From the NCBI GenBank assembly GCA_043798995.1, contig JAZDOD010000011.1:4737-68736 (forward strand): a stretch of DNA of 64,000 nucleotides, read 5' to 3'. Made by a program: the position numbers and the translations under genes. Positions within the stretch are counted from its first letter, which is position 1; every line of letters starts with the position of its first letter. The DNA is from a bacterium. GTDB taxonomy: Bacteria > Patescibacteriota > Patescibacteriia > JAACEG01 > JAGUWE01. Under the pieces are notes generated by a model. It made no database searches, was not told the origin of the DNA, and worked only from the letters and a program-made list of their open reading frames with translations. Positions 50,455-64,000 of this stretch are shown here, piece after piece.

Positions 50455-50490
50455 AAGCCCCCCGCTTTTAAAAGCGGGGGGCTTTTTGTT
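50455..50490 (+). terminator. Strong intrinsic terminator
   Basis: GCCCCCCGCTTTT/AAAAGCGGGGGGC then TTTTTG. Confidence 0.7.
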
Positions 50491-50674
50491 TATTTGTCTA
50501 AATTTTAAGTTCAATAATATATGTTATTCCTGTGAAAACAGGAATCCAGACCATTGAACCGGAATCTAGAGCTCGGATCAAGTCCGAGGTGACAATAAGG
50601 AATTTTGGTGGCGGGGTAAATACAGTCTAAATTTTCAATCCTGCCAAGGCGGGAGAAAAAATTTAGACAAATAA
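50489..50674. repeat. ~186-bp element bounded by perfect 18-bp inverted repeats TTTATTTGTCTAAATTTT, containing MITE hairpins
   Basis: Left IR 50489-50506, right IR 50657-50674; same end sequence after T-runs at 59758 and 60150. Confidence 0.5.
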
Positions 50675-51654: not shown

Positions 51655-53409
51655 TTGTTTATGATTAGCTTTTTTACTAAAAGTAGAAATCATGCCGAAC
51701 TCGGCGAAATACTCAAAAAAGAAGGCCTCTTAACCAAAGAGCAGTTTGAAACAATTGTCCGCCAGGCCGAAAAGGCAGGCCGCCATTTGACAGAGATTAT
51801 TTTTGAGGACAGCTCATTGCCCGAGGAAAAAACTTTGGCGCTACTTTGCCAGTTTTATGATTTACCGCCTGTTTTTCTAAGAAAGAAAGTAATTTCTCCG
51901 TTGGTGATCAATCTTATTCCCAAAGAAGTTGCCGAACAGCACAATGTTATAATTTTTAAAAAAATCAAAGATGTAATTCATGTTGCCATCACCAACCCGG
52001 AGAATTATCAAATTTTGGAATTTATTAAAAAGAAAACCGAATTGGAACCGATACCCCATCTGACCACGCCCAAGGATATCAATGTCGCTTTAAGAAAATA
52101 TAATACCCAGATCGGCGAAGATCTGGCCCAAATCATTGATTATAGCGTTAAGGAAGCGGCAGCTTTGAATGTTTCTCCGGAACAGGCCGCTCGCTTTCTT
52201 CCTGTTATAAAAATGGTTAATGGAATTATTGAAAAAGCCCTTGGCAAAGGAGCATCCGATATTCACGTGGAGCCGACTTTAGACAAAATTATTATCCGTT
52301 ACCGAATCGACGGCATGTTGAATAGGGTAGCGGAATTGCCGAAAGAAGCTTTGCCCCTTTTTATAACCAGAATTAAGATCTTGGCCAATCTTAAAATTGA
52401 TGAACACATGATACCTCAGGACGGTCGTTTTCATTTTAAATATCAGGATCAGGAAATTGCTATCAGAGTTTCAATTATTCCAACACTCCACGGCCCCAAA
52501 GCAGCCCTGCGGCTTTTGGAAATGCAACAGAAAGTTTTTACCCTGAGGAAGCTCGGCCTGAATCAAAATCACTATGGTTTGCTCAAAAATGAAATCAAAG
52601 CCAATCAGGGCATGATTTTGGTTACCGGCCCTACCGGCAGCGGCAAAACTACCACTCTTTATACGCTTATGCGCATGCTCAACCGAGAAGATGTTAATAT
52701 CTGCACCATTGAAGATCCGATTGAATATAGCATTGACAATATTAATCAAATGCAAGTTAAGCCCCAAGTCGGCCTGACCTTTGCTTCGGGGCTGCGGTCG
52801 CTTCTCCGCCAGGACCCCAATATCATAATGGTTGGAGAAATAAGAGACGAGGAAACGGCCAGTATGGCGGCCAATTCTGCCATGACCGGCCATTTAGTTT
52901 TATCAACTTTGCATACCAATAACGCCTTTTTTGTTGTTCAAAGGTTATATGAAATGGGCATTCAGCCCTATCTTTTGGCTTCGGTTATCAATTTGGTTAT
53001 CGGCCAACGCTTAGTCAGAAGAATTTGTTCTAATTGCCGCGGTCGGGGACGTTTTCCGGAAAAAATTATCGCCAATTACCAGCCATTTTTAAAAATTAAA
53101 GAAACAATAACAAAATTAAAAAAACAGGATCTTTTGCCCAAGGACATTAAAGTCCAAGAATTTCGGCTACTTCACGGGAGAGGTTGCGCCAAATGCAATT
53201 ACACCGGCTATCAGGGCAGAGTAGGAATTTACGAAATATTAAAAATAGACAGAAAAATGCGAAAATTAATTCTGAGCGACAACAGCGAAGAGGCAATTAG
53301 AAGATATGCCGCCTCACAAAATATTTTGACCATGGCCGAAGACGGCATTCTAAAAGTTCTAAACGGCGTCACTACTTTTGACGAAGTTTTAAGGGTAACC
53401 AAAGAATAA
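51655..53409 (+). CDS. pilB: Type IV pilus assembly ATPase (GspE/PilB family)
   Basis: T2SSE_N-like N-domain, Walker A LVTGPTGSGKTTTLY, Asp box, GEIRDEETA, tetracysteine motif. Confidence 0.9.
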   Translation: MFMISFFTKSRNHAELGEILKKEGLLTKEQFETIVRQAEKAGRHLTEIIFEDSSLPEEKTLALLCQFYDLPPVFLRKKVISPLVINLIPKEVAEQHNVIIFKKIKDVIHVAITNPENYQILEFIKKKTELEPIPHLTTPKDINVALRKYNTQIGEDLAQIIDYSVKEAAALNVSPEQAARFLPVIKMVNGIIEKALGKGASDIHVEPTLDKIIIRYRIDGMLNRVAELPKEALPLFITRIKILANLKIDEHMIPQDGRFHFKYQDQEIAIRVSIIPTLHGPKAALRLLEMQQKVFTLRKLGLNQNHYGLLKNEIKANQGMILVTGPTGSGKTTTLYTLMRMLNREDVNICTIEDPIEYSIDNINQMQVKPQVGLTFASGLRSLLRQDPNIIMVGEIRDEETASMAANSAMTGHLVLSTLHTNNAFFVVQRLYEMGIQPYLLASVINLVIGQRLVRRICSNCRGRGRFPEKIIANYQPFLKIKETITKLKKQDLLPKDIKVQEFRLLHGRGCAKCNYTGYQGRVGIYEILKIDRKMRKLILSDNSEEAIRRYAASQNILTMAEDGILKVLNGVTTFDEVLRVTKE

Positions 53410-53415
53410 AATAAT

Positions 53416-54624
53416 ATGCCAATCTATACTTTTAGCGCGCTCAAAGAAGACAATTCTTATATAAAAGGAAAGGTAAAGGCGCGCAGTCAGAAAAAAGCTA
53501 TAAAGATATTAGAAAAAGAGAAATTGTTGACGGTAAATATAAAAAAGGAAAAAAAGTTTGTCTGGGATAAAGTTTTAGCTTTTTCCACCGTCAGCCGGAT
53601 TGATAAGATTAATTTTACCAGGCATTTGGAGGCTTATCTTGAAGCAGGGGTTAATTTGGGCGAAGCGGTTAAAATCGCCGCCGAGCAAACCACCAATAAA
53701 AAATTGCAAGGAATTCTTGATGATATACACAAGAAAATTATGGGCGGCCAGAGTTTAAATGGCGCGCTTTCCCAGCACAGTAAATATTTTTCAAAATATT
53801 TTATTCGCCTGATAAGGGTAGGGGAAGAAAGCGGCTCCTTGGATAAAATACTGCGGCAGCTTTTAGAGCAGCAGGAAAAAGAATACGAATTAATAGGGAC
53901 CGTTCGCCGCTCTTTAACCTATCCGATTATCATAATCTTGGCTGCGATCGCGGTGGTAGTTTTTATGATGACTTTTGTCATCCCGACCGTTGCCAAAGTT
54001 TTGATTGATTACGGCGGCAAGCTGCCTTTGGCCACCAAAATCCTCATTACCGTAAGTAATTTTTTGGTTAATTTTGGCCTCTTGATGGCGCTGCTGATAA
54101 TTGTTATCGTTGTTTTTCTGCGGATTATAATCAAAAGAACTCCTTGGGGCAAATGGTATTTTGAATCTTTTCTCTTTTCCGTACCTATTCTCAAGAGAAT
54201 TATCATTGAATACAACATTGCTCATTTCACCACTTCAATGAGCGCGCCTCTTATGAGCGGCATACCCATAGACAAAGCTCTTGAATTAGCGGCAGAATCC
54301 TATCCTAACAGCCATTACCGGAAAACCATCAAAGAAAGCATAATTTTTATCCATCGCGGAGTTTCGCTTTCCGAGGTTTTGCGGGCGCACCCCAAGCTTT
54401 ATCCGCCGAATGTAATCCGCATAATCGAGATCGGCGAGCGAACCGGCCGGATTGACAATATGTTTTCCCACCTGGCTAATTTTTATCAAAAGTCGGTGAC
54501 CAACACCCTTAGCAATCTATCAACCGTTATTGAGCCGTTTTTATTAATTGCCATCGGTTTGACGGTTTGCTTTATTGCCGTTTCAATCCTCACGCCGATT
54601 TGGAGTTTTGCCGAAACCGTTTAA
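53416..54624 (+). CDS. pilC: Type IV pilus inner-membrane platform protein (GspF/PilC family)
   Basis: Two GspF repeats with 3 TM helices, 402 aa, follows pilB. Confidence 0.9.
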   Translation: MPIYTFSALKEDNSYIKGKVKARSQKKAIKILEKEKLLTVNIKKEKKFVWDKVLAFSTVSRIDKINFTRHLEAYLEAGVNLGEAVKIAAEQTTNKKLQGILDDIHKKIMGGQSLNGALSQHSKYFSKYFIRLIRVGEESGSLDKILRQLLEQQEKEYELIGTVRRSLTYPIIIILAAIAVVVFMMTFVIPTVAKVLIDYGGKLPLATKILITVSNFLVNFGLLMALLIIVIVVFLRIIIKRTPWGKWYFESFLFSVPILKRIIIEYNIAHFTTSMSAPLMSGIPIDKALELAAESYPNSHYRKTIKESIIFIHRGVSLSEVLRAHPKLYPPNVIRIIEIGERTGRIDNMFSHLANFYQKSVTNTLSNLSTVIEPFLLIAIGLTVCFIAVSILTPIWSFAETV

Positions 54625-54667
54625 CTTGATAATTCATTGTTGTCTTGCCGCAGAGTTGCCTTCGTCT

Positions 54668-54790
54668 GTCATTCCCGCGGAAGCGGGAATCCAGACGCCG
54701 TTCCTGCGAAAGCAGGGAGCCAGGGGATGTGGATTCCCGTTTTCACGGGAATGACAAAAAAAGAAAAAGTGCGGGATGACAAATAGAACG
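54668..54790. repeat. Compound MITE-like hairpin repeats (family A variants)
   Basis: TGTCATTCCCGCGGAAGCGGGAATCCAGA ... GGATTCCCGTTTTCACGGGAATGACA ... GTGCGGGATGACA. Confidence 0.6.
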
Positions 54791-54807
54791 CAAAAACTTC
54801 AACTTTT

Positions 54808-55257
54808 ATGAAAAATAAATTTAAAAGCAAGGGAGGTTTTACCTTAATTGAGATGCTTGTAGTAATGGCGGCTTTCGGTTTTATTTTAGCCATTACTGTT
54901 TTGTCTTACAATAATATCAGAAACAACATTGTCTTAAACAATAACGGTTTTGAGATAGCAAACGCCCTAAGAGAAGCGCAAAGCCGGTCCATCGTTTCTA
55001 AAAATAACCAAGTGCACGGCGTTCATTTTAATTCTGCCGATTATATTTTATATGACGGTCATTGGCCGGACATTACTTCTCAAACTGCTTATTCTTTTTC
55101 CCAAGGCATAAATATTTATAGCGGCGAAGGCATTAGCGTGGAATTTATGCGTCTCACCGGAGGAGCCGTCCAAGCAGAAGAAATTGTCATTGGCACAACC
55201 TCGGGCAACCAGAAGACAATCAGAATTGCCGCTAGCGGAAGAATTTCCATTGAATAA
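54808..55257 (+). CDS. Type IV pilin / pseudopilin
   Basis: Class III signal KSKGG-FTLIEMLVVMAAFGFIL, Glu+5. Confidence 0.8.
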   Translation: MKNKFKSKGGFTLIEMLVVMAAFGFILAITVLSYNNIRNNIVLNNNGFEIANALREAQSRSIVSKNNQVHGVHFNSADYILYDGHWPDITSQTAYSFSQGINIYSGEGISVEFMRLTGGAVQAEEIVIGTTSGNQKTIRIAASGRISIE

Positions 55258-55261
55258 ATAT

Positions 55262-55855
55262 ATGAAAAAACATCCTAAGGGATATATTATATTGGAAGTC
55301 ATTTTAGTTATCGGTATGGTATCATTGATTGTTCTTAGCGTCGGTAAAATTTTAGACACGCTTATAAGGTTAAATAAAATCAGCGAATCGCAAAGCAAAG
55401 CCCTAAGCTTTGCCCAAGAATCTTTGGAGATAATGAATGCCATAGGGCCGGCGAACTTTGTCTGCAGCTGCAACTTGGGCGATAGTTGCTCTTCTGGTAC
55501 CTGCACCAGGGCAAGCGATAGCCAACCTTGCAGTTTGTTTGCCGGCTACACCAGTTGCTGGACAGCTTATCCAAAAGATTTTGTCGGGCAAACAAATTTT
55601 TATTTGGAAAAAGTTGGCACAGAGTGGCAACTGCGCGTCTTAAGCACTCCGAGTGAAACCATTGCCGCGGATACTCATTTTACCAGAAAGTTAACCATTG
55701 AAAATGCCTTGCGTGATGCCGATGGCAACATTGCTTCAGCCGGCACGCCTGACTCCAATACCAAAAAAATAACGGTTAAGGTTTGGTACAGTGAGCGCAG
55801 CGTAGTCCATGAAGTTGCTTTGAAAACAATTCTGACTGCTTGGAAGAATTATTAA
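55262..55855 (+). CDS. Minor pilin-like protein (Cys-rich)
   Basis: MKKHPKG-YIILEVILVIGMVSLIVL with Glu+5; start trimmed to ATG 55262. Confidence 0.6.
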   Translation: MKKHPKGYIILEVILVIGMVSLIVLSVGKILDTLIRLNKISESQSKALSFAQESLEIMNAIGPANFVCSCNLGDSCSSGTCTRASDSQPCSLFAGYTSCWTAYPKDFVGQTNFYLEKVGTEWQLRVLSTPSETIAADTHFTRKLTIENALRDADGNIASAGTPDSNTKKITVKVWYSERSVVHEVALKTILTAWKNY

Positions 55856-55867
55856 AACAAATCTGTC

Positions 55868-55960
55868 ATTTTGACTTCTTCTCTTTGTCATTCCTGCGGA
55901 AGCAGGAATCCAGAGCTGGATCCCGCATCAAGTGCGGGATGACATAGATGAGGCACAGGA
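55868..55960. repeat. MITE: fused left and right ends of the GIY-YIG unit (gene deleted) plus extra hairpin
   Basis: TGTCATTCCTGCGGAAGCAGGAATCCAGAGCTGGATCCCGCATCAAGTGCGGGATGACAT. Confidence 0.7.
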
Positions 55961-55992
55961 ATGACAAAGAGAATATAAAATAAATTATAGAT

Positions 55993-56535
55993 ATGAAAAA
56001 TAATTTTAAAAATCAAGCCGGGCCTGCCCTCACACAAAAATTTGTTGTGACCCTGCGAAACAGGGGAGGGTTTACCATGATCGAGTTGCTTATTTATCTT
56101 GCCTTGACTACCGTGATTATTACGATTTTTACCGCTTTTATGGCCGAGGCCCTAAAAAGCCAGAGAAAAACAATTAACTCTCAAGCGGTTCAGCAGGAAA
56201 GCCGTTTTATTATTTCCCGCATCACCCAAGAGGTAAAAACTGCCCGGGAAGTTACCAGCGTTGAGCCCCAAAGATTAACCCTGAAAAATCCGGACAATCA
56301 AACAATCCAACTTTATCTAAATAGCATCGATGGCCTGGTTTATTTTGACAACAGCGTCCAAACCTCGCCTCTTTCCAGCCAAGACATTAAAATAACCCAA
56401 CTTAATTTTTCCCAAGAAGGTGATATTATTTATATCAATCTTACGGCCGAGAAAGATGAAACGCCCGACCAGCCAGGAGGCATATACTCACTTAGCTCGT
56501 CTTCGCTGGTGGTTCCCCGGGAGAAAATATATTAA
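55993..56535 (+). CDS. Pilin-like protein with long leader
   Basis: RNRGG-FTMIELLIYLALTTVIITIF with Glu+5. Confidence 0.65.
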   Translation: MKNNFKNQAGPALTQKFVVTLRNRGGFTMIELLIYLALTTVIITIFTAFMAEALKSQRKTINSQAVQQESRFIISRITQEVKTAREVTSVEPQRLTLKNPDNQTIQLYLNSIDGLVYFDNSVQTSPLSSQDIKITQLNFSQEGDIIYINLTAEKDETPDQPGGIYSLSSSSLVVPREKIY

Positions 56536-56550
56536 GAGAAAAACCTTATT

Positions 56551-56700
56551 TTTTTACCCTGTCATTCCGGACTCCCTTCTGTCATTCCTGCGAAACTTGT
56601 CCTCGAGAAATCGGGGAGCAGGAATCCAGGAGAATTGATATGGTTCCCCGTTTTCACGGGGACGGAGTCTGGATCCCGTATCTAGTACGGGATGACAAAG
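56551..56700. repeat. Cluster of MITE-like hairpin repeats (family A variants)
   Basis: GTCATTCCGG..., TGTCATTCCTGCGAAAC...GCAGGAATCCAGG, GGTTCCCCGTTTTCACGGGGACGG, GGATCCCGTATCTAGTACGGGATGACA. Confidence 0.6.
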
Positions 56701-56713
56701 AAAGAAGCGCAGG

Positions 56714-58096
56714 ATGGTATTCAATAATTCTATAATTATGAATTTTAAATATCAAAAACCAGAAGGGATGATTGCAGTGCTTACTTTGTTCGGCGTTACG
56801 GCCGTGACCTTGGCTATTGCCTCAACTTTGGTTTCGCTTTCAATCGGCGATCTTAAAATGAGCCGGGCAGGAGGATCTTTAGAACAGGCCTTTTATTCGG
56901 CCGAGTCAGGTCTTAACGAAGCGCTTTATCGGCTGATTAAAAATCCCGTTCCGGGAAATTATTCAATTAATCTTGACGGCACCAGTATTGCCATTTCCGT
57001 TTCAACTAATCCCGCCGATCATTACCAGCGAATCATTCAGTCGCAAGCTACAGACCCAACAGGTAAAATCCGCACCGTTAGAATTATTGCCAATACTTCT
57101 TCTTTCGCCGGCGGTTTTGATTATGCCGTTCAGGGCGGCAATGGCGGCATTCATATGGATAATAACAGCGAGGTAGCAGGCGGTGTTTATTCCAACAGCA
57201 GCATTTTACCAGCCGGCGCTTGTCCCGGGGGCGAATCAGCCAAGCCCCTTATTAACGGTAATGTCTGGGTGGCTAATAGTAATCTTTTAGATTGCGTTAA
57301 AGTAGGCGGCGAGGTCCGCTCCAATACTATTCATCGTTCAATTATCAGCAGCAATGCTTATTATCAGACAATTGACGGGTCAACAAAAGTTGGCGGCACG
57401 CCTTGTCCTAACGGCCATTGCTTTCCCTCATCACCCGATCCTTTGCCTAAGCCCATGCCGATTAATGATGACGATGTTAATACTTGGAAAACCGAGATTA
57501 TAAATGCAGGCAATCCTGTTTTACTGCCCAACACAGCTGATTGCCCGATTGATGCCCTCGGCAATCATCTTCCCAATACTTATTGTATAATGGCAGATAC
57601 AACCTTGGGTTTGCAAAAAATAGAAGCCGATATTTATATTGACAATGGCGTTACCCTTACTTTACTTGGCAATATTTGGGCAACGGGGAAAATTATTTTA
57701 CAGAATAACGGTCTTATCAAAATTGATCCGTCTTTGGGCTGGGGCAGCGCGGTGATTATTACCGATGACATTGTTGATGTTGGTGAAAATTTCAGTATTT
57801 CCGGCTCGGGCGATCCGCGCAGTTTTGTTTTGATTCTTTCAACCAGCACCAGCGTTGATCCGGCTCTGCCTGCAGTTTATGCTTCCAATAATTCGGCTTC
57901 CATCGTCTTTGCCGCTATCCACGGCCTGCTAAAGGTTAAAAATAATGGCGCGCTTAATGCCGCAGCCGCAGAAGAGCTTTGGCTTGAGCCCAACAGTCGG
58001 GTAACCTACAATCCGCTTTTGGCAGCTTTTTCCGTGCCCGGCGGCGGTGGCGGCGACGAAGTCGGTACTGCCCTGGGAACTTGGGAAGAGAAATAA
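56714..58096 (+). CDS. Type IV pilus-associated protein with PilX_N-like N-terminus
   Basis: MIAVLTLFGVTAVTLAIASTLVSLSIGDLKMSRAGGSLEQAFYSAESGLNEAL; 460 aa. Confidence 0.6.
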   Translation: MVFNNSIIMNFKYQKPEGMIAVLTLFGVTAVTLAIASTLVSLSIGDLKMSRAGGSLEQAFYSAESGLNEALYRLIKNPVPGNYSINLDGTSIAISVSTNPADHYQRIIQSQATDPTGKIRTVRIIANTSSFAGGFDYAVQGGNGGIHMDNNSEVAGGVYSNSSILPAGACPGGESAKPLINGNVWVANSNLLDCVKVGGEVRSNTIHRSIISSNAYYQTIDGSTKVGGTPCPNGHCFPSSPDPLPKPMPINDDDVNTWKTEIINAGNPVLLPNTADCPIDALGNHLPNTYCIMADTTLGLQKIEADIYIDNGVTLTLLGNIWATGKIILQNNGLIKIDPSLGWGSAVIITDDIVDVGENFSISGSGDPRSFVLILSTSTSVDPALPAVYASNNSASIVFAAIHGLLKVKNNGALNAAAAEELWLEPNSRVTYNPLLAAFSVPGGGGGDEVGTALGTWEEK

Positions 58097-58166: not shown

Positions 58167-58466
58167 TTAATATTCTAATTTGACGCCAAGTTTTTCAGCT
58201 AATAGCTGAATCCATTTTTCATGGCGATCTAATTTAGAATTTATAAATACATATTCTTGGCTAAGATTTTCAACGGTTTTGGTTAATTTATCAACAGAAA
58301 TAATTAAGTTCTCAATAGCCATCCTGAGACTATCAAACTTTTCGTCTGCATCTTCTCTGAATTCAGCAAATTCTTTTTGGGTAACTAACTGAGTAACCAA
58401 GTTAGTTACATCATCTTTGGTCGCGACTATTTCACTAAGTTTTTGAATATCCTCATTAGTCAACAT
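58167..58466 (-). CDS. Hypothetical coiled-coil protein (99 aa; start MLTNEDIQ)
   Basis: Start trimmed to sit downstream of the consensus minus-strand promoter; likely leaderless. Confidence 0.45.
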   Translation of the reverse strand: MLTNEDIQKLSEIVATKDDVTNLVTQLVTQKEFAEFREDADEKFDSLRMAIENLIISVDKLTKTVENLSQEYVFINSKLDRHEKWIQLLAEKLGVKLEY

Positions 58467-58496
58467 ATTTGGAAAATTATTTAATTTATTAGCTAT

Positions 58497-58525
58497 ATTA
58501 TAACTTGTTGCCAGAAGGGTGTCAA
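58497..58525 (-). promoter_or_regulatory. Perfect-consensus sigma70 promoter on minus strand (TTGACA-17-TATAAT), with DnaA box 58563-58571 just upstream
   Basis: Plus-strand ATTATA 58497-58502 and TGTCAA 58520-58525; TTATCCACA at 58563. Confidence 0.5.
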
Positions 58526-58795
58526 ATTTTGCTTTTCCCCGTTTTTTGAATAGGTGGGGGATTATCCACAAACCCTTCCCCAATTTATCAACTATTTATC
58601 AACTTTTAACCCTTGACAAAACTGGCCAAAGATTTAAGATGACAAAACCATTAAAAATAATAAAACAAAATTGTCAAGCTGAATTTGCCTGCTTGCTTGC
58701 TGCGCCAAGATTCGGGTTTCAGGATTTTTTAGTTCTGGGGTCCGTCTATCAAGGCGACTGGAAGGCAGGTGAATTCAGTTTGAGAATTTAAAAAT

Positions 58796-59029
58796 TTATT
58801 TCTTTAAAAATTTAATGAGTTCGTCGGGTGAAATTTCTATTTCTCTTAAAATTTGTCTTAGGAGTCCCCGGCCAATATCTTCTCCGCAGTGAAAGGGAAC
58901 TAAAGTTGTTCTTCCGTCTTGATGCTTAAAAAAAATATGCGATCCTTTTTGTCGCACTGAATAAAAGCCAAGTTCTTTTAAAATTTTTATTAATTCTTGA
59001 GCTTTGAGAGTTGGCAGTTTTGGACTCAT
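58796..59029 (-). CDS. hicA: HicA-family mRNA interferase toxin
   Basis: KGSHIFFKH...TLVPFHCGEDIGRGLLRQILREIEI; 77 aa; overlaps hicB by 4 nt. Confidence 0.8.
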   Translation of the reverse strand: MSPKLPTLKAQELIKILKELGFYSVRQKGSHIFFKHQDGRTTLVPFHCGEDIGRGLLRQILREIEISPDELIKFLKK

Positions 59030-59274
59030 ACATTGACAGTTTGAAGACCGATAAAGGTGGGCTCATAGCTTAGGTGTTTAATCTTTTTTCTGTATTGAGG
59101 GTCTTCTTTTGCCACTTCAAGACAAAGCAGAATTGCTTCTCTAATTCTTTTATTAAGTTCATTAAGGGTTTTGGCTTGAGTACAGCAGCCCGGTAAAGCC
59201 GGCACAGAAGCAACAAAAAAACCATCCTCATCTTGCTCAATAATGACTCTAAATTGTCTTTGAACTTTCGCCAT
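59026..59274 (-). CDS. hicB: HicB-family antitoxin
   Basis: EQDEDGFFVASVPALPGCCTQAKTLNELNKRIREAI (UPF0150 fold). Confidence 0.8.
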   Translation of the reverse strand: MAKVQRQFRVIIEQDEDGFFVASVPALPGCCTQAKTLNELNKRIREAILLCLEVAKEDPQYRKKIKHLSYEPTFIGLQTVNV

Positions 59275-59391
59275 ATTTTTAGATAGATAGATTTTAAAAC
59301 TATTTTTAGTTTATATTTAATCAAAACGAATGTCAAGGTAAGGTTTAAAAAGGAGATTGTCGCGCCAAAGGCGGGACGTGGCAATCTCTTT

Positions 59392-59460
59392 TTCTCTTTG
59401 TCATCCCGCACTTGATGCGGGATCCAGCTCTGGATTCCTGGTCAAGCCAGGAATGACAGA
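59392..59460. repeat. MITE (reverse orientation of the fused-end element, variant hairpin)
   Basis: TGTCATCCCGCACTTGATGCGGGATCCAGCTCTGGATTCCTGGTCAAGCCAGGAATGACAGA. Confidence 0.65.
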
Positions 59461-59534
59461 AAGGAGCCAGGCAATGATGGAAAAGCGAGTGGGGGGAGTT
59501 TCCCCCACCTATTAGAGTTATCCCCAGCTTAAAA

Positions 59535-59563
59535 AAAATCGGCTTGACACGAATTTTTAAAAA
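59535..59563 (+). promoter_or_regulatory. Sigma70 promoter TTGACA-17-TAAGAT
   Basis: TTGACA 59535-59540, TAAGAT 59558-59563. Confidence 0.4.
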
Positions 59564-59569
59564 TCATAA

Positions 59570-59755
59570 GATGATTTAATGTCTAATTGATATTGTAGAT
59601 AAACGACCCCGTGCCTCGATATGGGGCAAGTCTCGTACTTTGCGGGGTAAACCAATAAACTAAATCCGAAACTTTTTAAAAATAAGGAAGGCACCCCGAA
59701 AATTAAACTTCGTTTAATAACGGGGCAAAGGGAGGAAAAAGTTATTGGTTTTTTT
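59570..59755 (+). ncRNA. Candidate ~185-nt structured small RNA (unclassified)
   Basis: No ORF; hairpins CCCC.../GGGG, CACCCCG...CGGGG with nested CGAA/TTCG; closing stem CCAATAAAC/GTTATTGG then U7. Confidence 0.25.
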
Positions 59756-59757
59756 GT

Positions 59758-59900
59758 TTATTTGTTTAAATTTTCGATTCCATTAATATATGTCATTCCT
59801 GTGAAAACAGGAATCCAGAGCTGGATCCCGCATCTACCGCCTTTGGCGGGACAAGCAAGTGCGGGATGACAATAAGAGAAATTCAGGATGACATTGAAAA
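59758..59900. repeat. Compound repeat: TTTGTTTATTTGTTTAAATTTT end plus family-A MITE hairpins
   Basis: Shares terminus with 50489 and 60150; contains ATTCCTGTGAAAACAGGAAT and CCGCCTTTGGCGGG. Confidence 0.55.
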
Positions 59901-60149
59901 ATAATCCCGCATAGATTTTTGGACTAGGCCTATTTGCTGTCACGAGATTAAAAGTGGTTAAAACAGCTTAGGTTGTTTCTTAACTGCCTTCCTCGAGATG
60001 CCCTTAGGTGCGTCCAAAAATTTGTGCAGGATATATATTAAGTAATTAAAAAAGTATGACCTACACAGCAAGAGAAATTCATTTCCCAAACTTTTGTTTT
60101 TGTTGGAAAAAAATAAATTTAAATATTATAAAATCTCAAGTTTAGCTTG

Positions 60150-60270
60150 AGATTTTTTGTTTATTTGTTTAAATTTTCAATCACGCCAAAGTCGAGAGCA
60201 GGAAATTTAGCAACAAATAAACATCCTGCCGTATCCGCCTACTGGCGGAGAAGGCGGATAAAAGGTTAGT
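60150..60270. repeat. Repeat with TTTGTTTATTTGTTTAAATTTT end and CCGCC...GGCGG hairpin
   Basis: Inserted after the T-run of hairpin CTCAAGTTTAGCTTGAG. Confidence 0.5.
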
Positions 60271-60300: not shown

Positions 60301-63300
60301 CAAAACCATATGGACAACAAAACATTCAAAGTCAAAATGCTGGTTGTTTTTGCCATCACGGCAATTACTTTGCAACTTGGCATTTTTAGTATTCAAGCTT
60401 TTGCTCAAGAAGCAGATGCGCCAACCGAAGCGGTTGAGGCCGCAACGGAACCGGCTGTAGAGCCAGCACCCGCCACCGAAGGTGTCGAGGCGATGCCCGC
60501 CACCGAAGGTGTCGAGGCAACGCCGGCTATAGAAGAAACTGCCTTGGCAGCCGAAGAGGCTGCTCCGACAGAAGAACCCGCCTCCGATGGAGTCGAGGCA
60601 GGGCTTAATTATTGTCCGGTAAATCCTGAAATCACTACTGCCGCTGCCAGCGAACCAGCTCCCGCTCCGGTTTTAACAACTGACAAAGCTGATTACGCTC
60701 CTACAGAAAAAGTCACCATTTTCGGCAGACTATTTCAAGCTTTGCAAAATTTAATTTTAAGAATTGTCGGCGGCTTTCCAGATGGGAGCCAGCAAGTGAC
60801 CCATGAAGACACGGTTACTACCGACGACCAAGGCGCTTTTACTTATGAATACCAACTGGACGGCACCTACCGCCCGGATTATACCGTTACCGCCAGCAGC
60901 GAAGCCGGCGAAGAATTGGCGAGAACGACCTTTACGGATCCTCCCGCCGGATTTAATCCTTCAGTTTCAATTGATCAATGTGCAAACGGTGGTATCGGTA
61001 ATACTCCCGAAAGCTGTGCAACCAAACCGCCTCTTTCAAATGCCACTTATCAATCAGGTAATGTTAATGGGCAAAAAGCTCATTGGCAAGAAGGAGATGT
61101 ATTGCCGTATAGAGCTGTTTTAAAAGATTTAGCCGCTGGGATTAACAGAGTAACTTTTAGTTTTGATACTGCTAAAGGTAGCGAAATGAAACATGCAATA
61201 GATTATCTTGCTAGTTTTGATTATACCGAAACAACAGGCCCAGCAACGCCAAATCATGCAAATCAGAATAATCCTTGTGCCGATACAATCGTCGGATGCA
61301 ATCCGGCAGCTCCGACCGCGACAGCAAATATAAATGTTCCAAGTTATTTTACAACAGGATATCCAATAGCATGTGCTAATGGAGCTTGGGCTGGTGGTAA
61401 TCCAATTGCTAATCAGCAAATCAAAGCCTGGGGTAATATAGATTCTTCAATGATTCTCACTTATCCTGATGGCGGGATTCCAACTTCCGGTGATTGTTCT
61501 CCAAGATTCACAATTGAGTTTAATGTAACAGTCGCGCATTCAGATGTAGTTATCGCTTGGGGCGGACACGTAGCGGCAAATCAAGATCCCGGAGCCGGAG
61601 GTTATTGGGGTACAGGAAATGCCGTACCAACTGGATCACCTTATCATATGCATGCAGGGTTTCCCCAGGAAAGTCCTAGCGGGACATTTTATCAAGTAGG
61701 CAATCAAGATTTACAGCTTGCCTCTTCTGCCATATCCGCACCTGGTTCAATCGTCATTATTAAAAATACTGTAGGCGGTGATAATACATTTAATTATACG
61801 GCAACTGGTGGAGGAATAACTTCGCCTTTTTCTATCACGACTAGCGGCGGAGCTAATAGCGTAACTTTTGGCAGTTTAGCAACCGGAGCCGCTGGCGGAA
61901 GTCGTAGCATTACAGAAAATACTCAACCAAGCGGTTGGGGATTTACAAGTCTTTCATGCCAGGTTACGGTCGCAGGTGATGGAACAACAGCATATTCTAT
62001 AACAGGACCGACCGTTAACGTAACAAATTTAGGAGGCGGCGCTTCTTTAACCTGTACTTATACTAACACACTTCAAACAGGTCATGTTATTATCGTCAAA
62101 GATGCAATTCCTAATGATGCCCAAAATTTTGCATTCGCGAATAACTTCGGAAATGGAAATCCAGCATCATTTAATTTAGATGATGATGCCGACGGCACTT
62201 TGTCTAACTCCAGAGATTCCGAAGTCTTAGCTGGTACTTATGCCGTTTCCGAAACCGTTCCATCCGGCTGGGATCTTACTTCTGCCACTTGTGATCATGG
62301 CACAATTGGAGCTATACAAGTTTTAGCCGGACAGACAACTACCTGCACTTTTACCAACACCAAGCGTGGTTCAATTACTATTATCAAAAATACAATTGGT
62401 GGTGACGGAACATTTAATTACACCAGTAATTTTGGTGTAAGTTCGTTAACTACCAGTGGCGGCACTGCTTCGCAAACTGTTAATGATTTAGTTCCAGGAA
62501 GCGGTTATAGTATTTCAGAAACCGTTCCAGCTGGTTGGGATCTAACCAGCGCAACCTGCGATCACGGTACGATTGGCGCTATACAAGTTTTAGCCGGACA
62601 AACAACTACCTGTACCTTCACCAATACCAAACGCGGACATATTATTGTTGATAAAGTAACCGATCCGTCTGGCGATCCGCAAAGCTTTGCCTTTACCACA
62701 ACCGGTTCTGGCTATAACGGTTTTTCATTAACTGATGCCGCAGCCCCGAACAACCAAGAAGTTGCACCAGGCGCTTATTCGGTTGCCGAATCTGTTCCTG
62801 CCGGCTGGGATCTGACTTCTGCCACTTGCGATATGGGCGAGACGCCCGCGAGTTTAGATGTCGAGCCTGGCGAAACAGTAACTTGTACCTTTACCAACCA
62901 AAAAGACGCCATTATAATTATTGAAAAGCAGACCTTGCCAGATGGTGATTCACAAGTTTTTGACTTTGACTTAAGTTACGGGGATGGCGATGCTGACTTG
63001 TCTGACGGCCAAACTGATAACTCCGGTGATTTAGATCCGGGTACCTATTCGGCTTGGGAAAACGTTCCTGCCGGTTGGGACTTTACTTCCGCTGTTTGCA
63101 GCGATCAAAGCCCCGTAGGAGCTATATCTTTACAGGCCGGTGAAACAGTCACTTGTGTCTTCACCAACACCAAGCGCGGACATATTATCGTTGATAAAGT
63201 AACCATTGGCGGAGATGCCACTTTCTCGTTTGACGCCAGCGGCGGAACAGATCCAGCTTATGCTAATTTCACTCTTACCGGCGCACAAACGCCTAATAAT

Positions 63301-64000
63301 CAAGAATTAAAACCAGGATCTTATTCCGTATCCGAAGGCGCATTGGCCGGTTGGGATTTAACTAACACAGTTTGCGTCAGTTCAATTGGCGACACGGAAA
63401 CCGCCGGCAGCTTAGAATTAGACGCTGGCGAGACCGTTACCTATACCTTCACTAATACCAAGAAACCAACCTTAACAGTAAATAAAGTTTTAGTTCCCTC
63501 AAGTGATAATGGTTTATTCAATTTACAAATAGATAGTTCTACTGCCGGTACCGGCGCAAATGTCGGTGATGGTGGAACAACCGGAGCGGTAGAAGTGACA
63601 ATCGGCGCTCACACCGTTGGCGAAACCGCCGGCACCGGTACTGATTTATCACACTATGTAACCGTAATCAGTGGTGACTGTGCCGCTGACGGAACCGTAA
63701 GTTTAGCTGCCGGTGAAAACAAGACCTGCACTATTACCAATACTAGAAAAGGCAGCATCACAATTAAGAAGGTCACAGTTGGCGGTGATGCCAGCTTTAC
63801 CTTTACCGGTGATGTGGCCGGTTCATTAAGTAATAATCAAACAGCTACAGCTCAAGTTGTGCCCGGTACTTATCATTCAACTGAAACCGTACTTACTGGC
63901 TGGGATTTAACGAATATTACTTGCAACGATTCTGACAGTTCTGGCGTAATTAGTACTGGCGTTGCTACCTTTAATGTGGCAGCCGGTGAGGATGTCACGT
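60301..64000 (+). CDS. Giant cell-surface adhesin-like protein with tandem SpaA/CnaB-type (prealbumin-fold) domains; open at window end
   Basis: Signal peptide; A/P/E-rich linker; >=9 ~100-aa repeats with GxYxxxExxxAGWDLTxxxC ... TCTFTNTKRG; frame checked codon by codon, no stop through 64000. Confidence 0.8.

Follow-up and report, generated by a model that had tools for sequence, protein, structure and literature searches.

A putative fibrillar adhesin with a predicted isopeptide-locked CnaB-type stalk, encoded near type IV pilus genes of a patescibacterium

A stretch of 64,000 nt from a bacterium of the Patescibacteriota (Candidate Phyla Radiation, CPR; contig JAZDOD010000011.1 of assembly GCA_043798995.1, positions 4,737 to 68,736 of the forward strand; termed here the window) was found to end within a long open reading frame (ORF), the protein of which is probably a secreted, rod-shaped surface adhesin with the architecture of fibrillar adhesins. 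The window holds its N-terminal 1230 amino acids (aa), comprising a signal peptide and a tandem array of stalk domains. The protein is best filed under a known class, the fibrillar adhesins with predicted isopeptide-locked CnaB-type stalks, and cell attachment is the most reasonable role for it. An earlier interpretation made from the letters of the window (the sequence-only reading) had described a giant adhesin of SpaA/CnaB-fold domains associated with a pilus; its observations were partly confirmed, the ORF being real, and its interpretation was partly supported, in that the fold and the catalytic triad of the domains were recovered.

CPR bacteria live attached to other cells, and the adhesins of their uncultivated majority are unannotated. 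The protein indicates that predicted isopeptide-locked stalk adhesins, a hallmark of Gram-positive bacteria, occur in the CPR, the closest orthologues having a C-terminal module that is not of the sortase type. In the proposed model, the protein would be exported by Sec and its signal peptide then cleaved. The mature protein would consist of a disordered acidic linker, an immunoglobulin (Ig)-like or macroglobulin (MG2)-like domain and a beta-sandwich head of 265 aa as candidate ligand binder, followed by a stalk of at least ten tandem CnaB-type (SpaA_4/SpaA_2) domains. Each of these would form an autocatalytic Lys-Asn isopeptide bond between its first and last beta-strands, with the E-box glutamate as catalyst, and most would add a disulfide, giving a rod resistant to force and proteases. 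The missing C-terminus would, by homology, be a domain of approximately 150 aa (TQGFW...FWD.P), probably a cell-proximal retention module, and the protein, together with the type IV pilus encoded nearby, would most likely aid attachment to the surface of a host or partner cell.

Stalk domains and predicted isopeptide bonds

A search with profile hidden Markov models matched the repeats to two Pfam families of the Transthyretin clan, SpaA_4 (PF24514; 237.1 bits against a cut-off of 27.3, E 4e-71, seven stretches) and SpaA_2 (PF19403; 88.3 bits against a cut-off of 25). SpaA_4 was set up, along with nine other families, by a 2025 survey of intramolecular isopeptide bonds and is a predicted CnaB-like isopeptide domain, with a reference triad of Lys704, Glu766 and Asn814 and with disulfides prevalent among its members (PMC12617251). 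The best SpaA_4 stretch (aa 481-587, in repeat D1 of Table 1) covered positions 1-106 of the 107 of the profile. The D1 lysine is the fifth residue of this match and the D1 asparagine lies near position 105 of the 107 in the profile; K704 and N814 of the SpaA_4 reference protein stand at equal distances from the two profile ends.

Where at least nine domains of about 100 aa had been counted in the window, eight repeats of approximately 90 aa were identified, of which seven are complete and the last (D8) is cut off by the window end. D8 is complete in the deposited 1372-aa fragment of the same protein (P0001), which carries nine complete repeats and one partial repeat. The motifs described earlier were recovered, TxTN(T/Q)(K/L/R) at five sites plus variants and GW(D/G)(L/F)T at seven sites. 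Pairs of repeats differ widely (21-62% protein identity), with D7, a divergent subtype, being 21-34% identical to the others.

A Lys/Glu/Asn triad was found in all seven complete repeats of the window. Among 26 aligned repeats from the window protein and two orthologues, Lys6, Phe15, Glu50 and Gly76 were invariant, while Asn85 was changed once, to aspartate, which in place of the triad asparagine is also bond-competent. This conservation extends to 1246 repeats of 258 family proteins, in which the glutamate is present in 99.1% and the asparagine in 93.6%, with aspartate in a further 3.7% (97.3% together, the remainder being gaps); lysine accounts for 98% of the non-gap residues at its position, and the two cysteines are present in 71% and 94%.

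An AlphaFold2 model of D3 (predicted local distance difference test score, pLDDT, 97.2) placed K6 on the first strand, E50 on a central strand and N85 on the last strand of a CnaB-type (prealbumin/transthyretin-like) beta-sandwich. The best structural matches of the repeat were pilins of Streptococcus pyogenes, PitA, RrgB and the isopeptide adhesin of Mobiluncus mulieris; in the structural ranking, PitA was followed by the M. mulieris adhesin (which carries disulfide, isopeptide and ester bonds), PitB, RrgB, TIE and a CnaB2 domain. When PDB sequences were searched with the whole protein and with a repeat profile, nothing significant was found, and no SpaA_4 member was detected there by sequence. 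Alignment and model together support the assignment of the stalk domains to the prealbumin-like CnaB fold with the Lys-Glu-Asn triad that defines predicted isopeptide domains. A SpaA_4 match with the triad present was the outcome, and not the unrelated fold lacking triad residues that had been named as counting against the sequence-only reading. Formation of the Lys-Asn bond in the repeats is a prediction from these data. As confidently modelled units of 89 aa bearing a triad, the repeats might be of use as compact candidates for isopeptide tags in protein engineering.

The repeats resemble SpaA_4 and SpaA_2 in their profile match, the corresponding triad, the co-occurring disulfide and the tandem arrangement in long secreted proteins, but are short (89-96 aa) compared to the 107 positions of the SpaA_4 profile. 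That family is itself only predicted, with no solved structure, and the main text of the survey that created it is without Patescibacteria or CPR (PMC12617251). Compared to the CnaB domains of Gram-positive bacteria (S. pyogenes Spy0128/T13, Streptococcus pneumoniae RrgB and PitB, Streptococcus oralis PitA, and Staphylococcus aureus Cna and the B repeats of SdrD), the repeats share an E-box-like glutamate and a position as stalk behind an N-terminal functional region.

The internal repeats had also been described as near-identical and, on that account, as a likely hotspot for recombination and length variation. Near-identity holds for the protein, with 40 of 41 residues identical between 62248-62370 and 62515-62637, but not for the DNA, which is 80% identical over the same segments with synonymous differences at 20 of the 41 codons. 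No exact DNA repeat in the gene exceeds 23 nt, a length reached a second time by the 27-bp linker repeat. The hotspot argument fails because it rests on identity at the protein level while the DNA copies have diverged; the array is old, diverged and under purifying selection, and is a poor substrate for homologous recombination. Repeat halves that are near-identical in protein yet synonymously diverged may reflect strong purifying selection on a duplication of old date; alternatively, selection may have disfavoured identity of the DNA copies within the array. Repeat number varies from 6 to 13 among orthologues, one of which (P0002), unlike the window gene, has undergone a recent internal duplication (97% DNA identity, exact repeat of 110 nt).

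N-terminal region, head domain and C-terminus

The ORF opens with the ATG at 60310 and, as had been noted, has no stop up to the last base of the window, a length of 1230 codons. Its translation matches with 100% identity the deposited protein V1892_03755 ("hypothetical protein, partial", 1372 aa, NCBI) of the metagenome-assembled genome. This entry is itself partial on a contig of 69161 nt, so that the gene, the 3' end of which is missing, is truncated in the source and not merely by the window. The signal peptide and the A/P/E-rich linker with 27-bp repeats reported earlier were both recovered. The former, read from the sequence, has a Lys-rich n-region, an 18-aa hydrophobic core and an AxA site (cleavage between AFA and Q), giving a mature protein that starts with QEADAP. 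The latter consists of 27% Ala, 21% Glu, 13% Pro and 11% Thr and includes, at 60469-60535, 2.5 copies of a tandem repeat of 27 bp (85% matches with Tandem Repeats Finder). The non-repeat region that follows was found to span approximately 360 aa (aa 118-479) rather than the 250 aa first described, and to consist of the Ig/MG2-like domain and the head. The possibility of a thioester-domain (TED) adhesin was considered and rejected, as matches to CD109, TEP1 and C3 span macroglobulin (MG) domains only and the candidate cysteine is not invariant; a TED profile match with a conserved Cys-Gln pair was not found.

The head is a conserved beta-rich domain of an undescribed family. E261, R268, H295, D298, H420, W433, G434, Y445, H446 and D467 are invariant in the alignment of its members, and a structure model of aa 118-480 reached a pLDDT of 88.6. 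Pfam and NCBIfam scans of 26 head sequences gave no family match and weak Ig-like matches at most, a head profile searched against PDB sequences gave nothing significant, and Foldseek of the head model against the PDB gave no meaningful match (template modelling score, TM, at most 0.28). Among GTDB species representatives, 403 head loci were confirmed with tblastn, spanning CPR, Actinomycetota, Acidobacteriota, Chloroflexota, Planctomycetota, Bacteroidota, Alphaproteobacteria and archaea, and a profile search of 1.84 billion representatives yielded 1725 clusters (50% identity) at E <= 1e-30. In these clusters the head lies almost always near the N-terminus of long proteins; head and Ig module are N-terminal in nearly all of the 120 first matches and in the top 150 of the 1725 clusters. 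The same head is found with several stalks (SpaA-type, Big_3_5, DUF11 and SdrD_B). Such a distribution, with an N-terminal position, is what a functional tip module would be expected to show. The head occupies the N-terminal, non-stalk place at which a recognised adhesive domain is expected while matching none that is known, and is a candidate ligand-binding module as well as a candidate for a new curated family, currently having no Pfam or NCBIfam model. Cultured strains that carry the family include Intrasporangium oryzae NRRL B-24470, Gramella sp. KN1008 and Falsiroseomonas sp. HW251.

The invariant cluster of Glu, Arg, His, Asp and Tyr residues suggests a pocket that binds a metal, a glycan or a substrate. 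It is improbable that the head is instead an enzyme borne on the stalk (a glycan or peptidoglycan hydrolase or lyase, or a metalloenzyme) that attacks or remodels the envelope of the partner cell. Eight of its invariant residues (E261, R268, H295, D298, H420, Y445, H446 and D467) are of types mostly found as catalytic residues or metal ligands, the head is conserved across very distant phyla and archaea, and genes for M10/zincin-like proteases lie downstream of the orthologues at loci L001 and L004; set against this, no sequence or fold similarity to enzyme families was found, and binding domains are usually built as the head is, as all-beta sandwiches placed at a stalk tip. The protease genes are small, encode Peptidase_M10 (matrixin/zincin-like) proteins and lie shortly downstream of the orthologues (L001 16463-17278, L004 13112-13846); in the genome of the window, the corresponding stretch falls past the end of the contig.

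The C-terminus was approached through the full-length orthologues P0002, P0003 and P0004 (loci L003, L001 and L004, respectively), which are 43-46% identical to the window protein overall and 51-65% in the head region. All three end in a conserved domain of approximately 150 aa (PTRTQGFWKTH...LNCAAFG...NNSGDT...GKATPK.SQS...FWD.P) in which no LPXTG, membrane segment or Pfam match was detected. A search with this domain returned 23 proteins, mostly fragmentary and giving no functional clue; stand-alone proteins of this type were found in a WWE3 bacterium and in an Aenigmatarchaeota (DPANN) archaeon. Approximately 35 of the 120 best family members terminate in LPATG followed by a hydrophobic stretch and a basic tail, and further members carry a simple membrane anchor at that end. 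As these anchors of relatives are C-terminal, the head would be the distal end, and as the unnamed domain occupies the same place as the anchors, it may be an alternative retention module. Judged from its orthologues, the window protein is probably retained at the cell by such a module.

A reverse topology, in which an uncleaved N-terminal signal anchor would hold the protein, the linker would span the wall and the C-terminal domain would be the distal tip, is very unlikely. Anchor-adjacent Pro-rich low-complexity segments typically span the wall in Gram-positive surface proteins, and the closest orthologues are without a recognisable C-terminal anchor. Against this topology, the signal peptide has a canonical AxA motif at its end, and family members anchored by LPATG have equally long linkers before the head (head start at 185 in P0005 and 158 in P0006).

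A pilin nature of the Gram-positive type was not borne out. The prospect that the protein is a subunit of a sortase-assembled pilus or a wall-anchored LPXTG protein of the MSCRAMM type (microbial surface components recognizing adhesive matrix molecules) is slight. The fold and the E-box-like motif (Y...ET.P.GW) do match the CnaB domains of pilins, the LPATG ends described above occur in the family, and sortase genes adjoin the orthologues at L003 and L006. However, neither YPK nor LPXTG was present in the 1230-aa window fragment, the 1372-aa deposit (P0001) or P0002-P0004, and no sortase-type C-terminal signal was present in the complete proteins P0002, P0003, P0004, P0007, P0008, P0013 and P0021, a negative that for the adhesin rests on these orthologues, since its own gene lacks the true 3' end. 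The sortase of L003 found no tblastn match in the 64-kb window at E <= 10, and a polypeptide of more than 1300 aa with at least ten domains is not pilin-like. The prepilin motif G-F-T-L-I-E of the neighbouring pilins is likewise absent from the N-terminus of the protein. A pilin of either kind was rejected on the combined absence of LPXTG, YPK and prepilin motifs, of a sortase in the window and of a sorting signal in the orthologues.

The adhesin differs from Gram-positive pilins and MSCRAMMs in having no LPXTG, no pilin-motif lysine and no pilus sortase in the window, and from pilin polymers in being a single giant polypeptide, of a CPR host rather than a Firmicute or Actinobacterium. Its long Ig-like stalk with predicted isopeptide and disulfide bonds and its presumed adhesive tip resemble those of the giant adhesin of M. 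mulieris (5u6f; PMC10619420) and of fibrillar adhesins (Monzon & Bateman). The M. mulieris protein is anchored by LPXTG and also carries ester and thioester bonds, whereas the head and the inferred C-terminal domain of the window protein belong to no described family.

Recurrence beside type IV pilus genes

A type IV pilus (T4P) gene cluster lies upstream of the adhesin gene (Table 1), which had been placed immediately downstream of it. The two were found to be separated by 2.2 kb (58096 to the ATG at 60310) that hold three minus-strand ORFs, including HicAB, and approximately 1 kb of non-coding DNA, and are not one operon in the window.

Genes of the head family were found within 10 kb of both pilB and pilC in six of approximately 17 CPR or CPR-like contexts and in none of approximately 69 contexts of other phyla. 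The CPR contexts are the window, L001/L002 (P0003), L006 (P0016), L011, L015 and L064. The pilus operon precedes the adhesin in the window and at L064, while the adhesin directly precedes the pilus operon on the same strand at L011 and L015; the genes are divergent at L001 and convergent at L006. Locus L064 has the gene order of the window, with a PilB that is 56% identical; approximately 600 nt separate its PilX-like gene from the start of the adhesin gene, which is encoded on the same strand. The protein of L064 shares the head with the window protein, while its stalk is of another type and an Ig-like domain is lacking, indicating that it is the head that travels with the pilus genes. Adjacency to pilus genes is absent at L003, L004, L005 and L007. 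Head-family genes beside pilB/pilC in the CPR look enriched over an assumed baseline of a few percent; this baseline is an estimate (approximately 4%, taking a genome of 1 Mb that carries two pilB loci), and, phylogenetically, the contexts do not count as independent. Contig CAYMZD010000001.1 (L007/L010) is labelled Gammaproteobacteria in one record, yet its adhesin protein P0021 is named Candidatus Daviesbacteria at NCBI, and the Gammaproteobacteria labels of other loci from co-assembled metagenomes (L014, L039 and L042) may be unreliable too.

Adhesins and T4P have both been described as required for the epibiotic growth of Patescibacteria (PMC10633639), the species concerned being the few in culture, and a model for Saccharibacteria has pili making first contact, with close-range surface adhesins bonding afterwards (PMC11623550). 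In the monoderm Clostridium perfringens, secretion of BsaC, which is large and folded, depends on T4P genes (PMC11580942). No paper joining CPR to isopeptide domains or fibrillar adhesins was found in the literature searched.

A physical coupling of the adhesin to the pilus is possible, if doubtful; the adhesin would be displayed or docked via minor pilins, for instance the 460-aa PilX-like protein, in the manner of PilY1, or pushed through the wall as by the piston of a type II secretion system (T2SS). The recurrence in the CPR in three arrangements, the close same-strand spacing at L064, the conservation of the head rather than the stalk type beside pilus genes and the precedent of BsaC are consistent with such a coupling. 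Weighing against it are the ordinary Sec signal without a prepilin motif, the lack of any Pfam match to a vWA, PilY1 or beta-propeller domain in the window protein, the loci without adjacency, the intervening HicAB genes, minus-strand ORF and terminator-like hairpin (60130-60156) in the window, and the estimated nature of the baseline together with the shared ancestry of contexts noted above. The adhesin shares pilB/pilC/pilin neighbours and a proposed part in epibiotic host attachment with PilY1 of Pseudomonas aeruginosa and PilX2 of Nanosynbacter lyticus TM7x (PMC11623550), but these are beta-propeller proteins, pilus-tip components or modular pilins, while the adhesin, which carries a Sec signal and a CnaB stalk, lacks propeller and vWA domains. 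The broader proposal that the CPR head domain defines host-recognition adhesins functionally coupled to T4P, through C-terminal docking or pilus-driven export, is a speculative one with little probability attached to it. If pilus coupling were true, a retractile pilus and a covalently locked rod adhesin would act as one epibiotic attachment device. Of the role proposed by the sequence-only reading, pilus-associated or in cell attachment, the latter stands as the most reasonable and the T4P link does recur; pilus association as such is not demonstrable.

The reading preferred here, a secreted fibrillar adhesin that acts alongside the pilus, has several points weighing against it. The isopeptide bond of SpaA_4 is itself a family-wide prediction. 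As no relative with a known function was detected for the head, the label "adhesive" is taken from architecture alone, and the conserved His/Asp/Glu set of the head would fit an enzyme equally well. The C-terminal domain is drawn from orthologues of 43-46% identity, the 3' end of the gene being missing, and this domain is without an assigned function and also exists as small stand-alone proteins. Pilus adjacency is absent in 11 of approximately 17 CPR contexts and in all non-CPR contexts, and in the window oppositely oriented genes separate the adhesin from the pilus locus. New leads arise from the analysis in the head family, which has no name as yet, in the likewise unnamed C-terminal domain that takes the place of LPXTG in the closest orthologues, and in the CPR-specific recurrence beside T4P genes.

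Features of the window and of the pilus-adhesin junction

Table 1. Features identified around and within the adhesin gene, with positions given in nt of the window
Feature	Position	Strand	Details
Type IV pilus gene cluster	51655..58096	+	Pfam matches and N-termini
pilB/T2SSE gene, with MshEN domain	51655-53409	+	Pfam T2SSE, E 2e-124
pilC/T2SSF gene	53416-54624	+	Pfam T2SSF, E 1e-46
Pilin genes, GFTLIE and GFTMIE motifs	54808-55257 and 55993-56535	+	Pfam N_methyl, N-termini
Possible pilin-like ORF	55184-55855	+	No Pfam match; overlaps preceding pilin gene
Gene of 460-aa PilX-like protein	56714-58096	+	Last pilus gene
Coiled-coil ORF	58167-58583	-	Between pilus cluster and adhesin gene
hicA	58796-59029	-	Pfam HicA_toxin, E 8e-22
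hicB	59026-59274	-	Pfam HicB_lk_antitox, E 4.5e-09
REP-like element pair	59357..59881		Inverted copies at ~59357-59460 and ~59790-59881, 367 nt between
REP-like 27-nt cores	55903-55929, 59414-59440, 59808-59834	-, +, -	Third copy inside pilus cluster
Partial coding sequence, adhesin-like protein, aa 1-1230	60310..64000	+	ATG at 60310, no stop before window end
Predicted Sec-type signal peptide, aa 1-32	60310..60405	+	MDNKTFKVKMLVVFAITAITLQLGIFSIQAFA, cleaved before Q; read from sequence
Acidic A/E/P/T-rich low-complexity linker, aa 33-117 (85 aa)	60406..60660	+	Composition
Ig-like/MG2-like beta-sandwich domain, aa 118-212	60661..60945	+	TDKADYAP...TTFTD
Conserved ~265-aa beta-rich head domain, undescribed family, aa 213-479	60946..61746	+	Alignment of members
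Stalk repeat D1, aa 480-590	61747..62079	+	Triad K485/E536/N586; Cys550, Cys582
Stalk repeat D2, aa 592-687	62083..62370	+	Triad K597/E648/N683; Cys661, Cys679
Stalk repeat D3, aa 688-776	62371..62637	+	Triad K693/E737/N772; Cys750, Cys768; modelled repeat
Stalk repeat D4, aa 777-867	62638..62910	+	Triad K782/E827/N863; Cys840, Cys859
Stalk repeat D5, aa 868-957	62911..63180	+	Triad K873/E917/N953; Cys930, Cys949
Stalk repeat D6, aa 958-1053	63181..63468	+	Triad K963/E1009/N1049; second Cys replaced by Tyr
Stalk repeat D7, aa 1054-1148	63469..63753	+	Triad K1059/E1105/N1144; divergent subtype
Stalk repeat D8, aa 1149-1230	63754..64000	+	Cut by window end 9 residues before its Asn

Among the pilus genes, the possible pilin-like ORF (55184-55855) has an internal methionine followed by a hydrophobic segment, MKKHPKGYIILEVILVIGMVSLIVL, that resembles a degenerate pilin-like N-terminus, and its true start is probably downstream of the listed TTG. 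Housekeeping genes identified in the window are pheT, dnaE, thrS, miaB, miaA, gatB, gyrB, a clp ATPase gene, alaS and mnmA, and a DUF5671 protein is encoded nearby. The named relatives of the window GyrB, at 66-80% identity, all belong to the Patescibacteria, which places the host in the CPR.

A palindromic element of approximately 60 nt resembling repetitive extragenic palindromic (REP) sequences or miniature inverted-repeat transposable elements (MITEs), TGTCATCCCGCACTT-GATGCGGGATCCAGCTCTGGATTCCTG-N5-CAGGAATGACA, was found in three copies with identical 27-nt cores. Two inverted copies flank a 367-nt segment upstream of the adhesin gene within which a promoter-like site was located (59544-59572). 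An invertible promoter was judged unlikely, given the third copy in the pilus cluster and the absence of an adjacent recombinase gene. An AT-rich direct repeat of 29 nt (TTTTTTGTTTATTTGTTTAAATTTTC...) was found at 59750-59778 and 60153-60181, with a diverged copy at 50482-50507; the terminator-like hairpin of 12 bp lies directly before the second 29-nt copy. A scan of the upstream non-coding region against Rfam gave sub-threshold chance matches at most.

Toxin-antitoxin genes were found at the junction of pilus and adhesin genes in two related genomes, namely HicA/HicB in the window and AbiEii with a small ORF at L001 (8622-9507, minus strand), while L064 has no insert at this junction. This suggests that the junction may be a landing site for small mobile modules.

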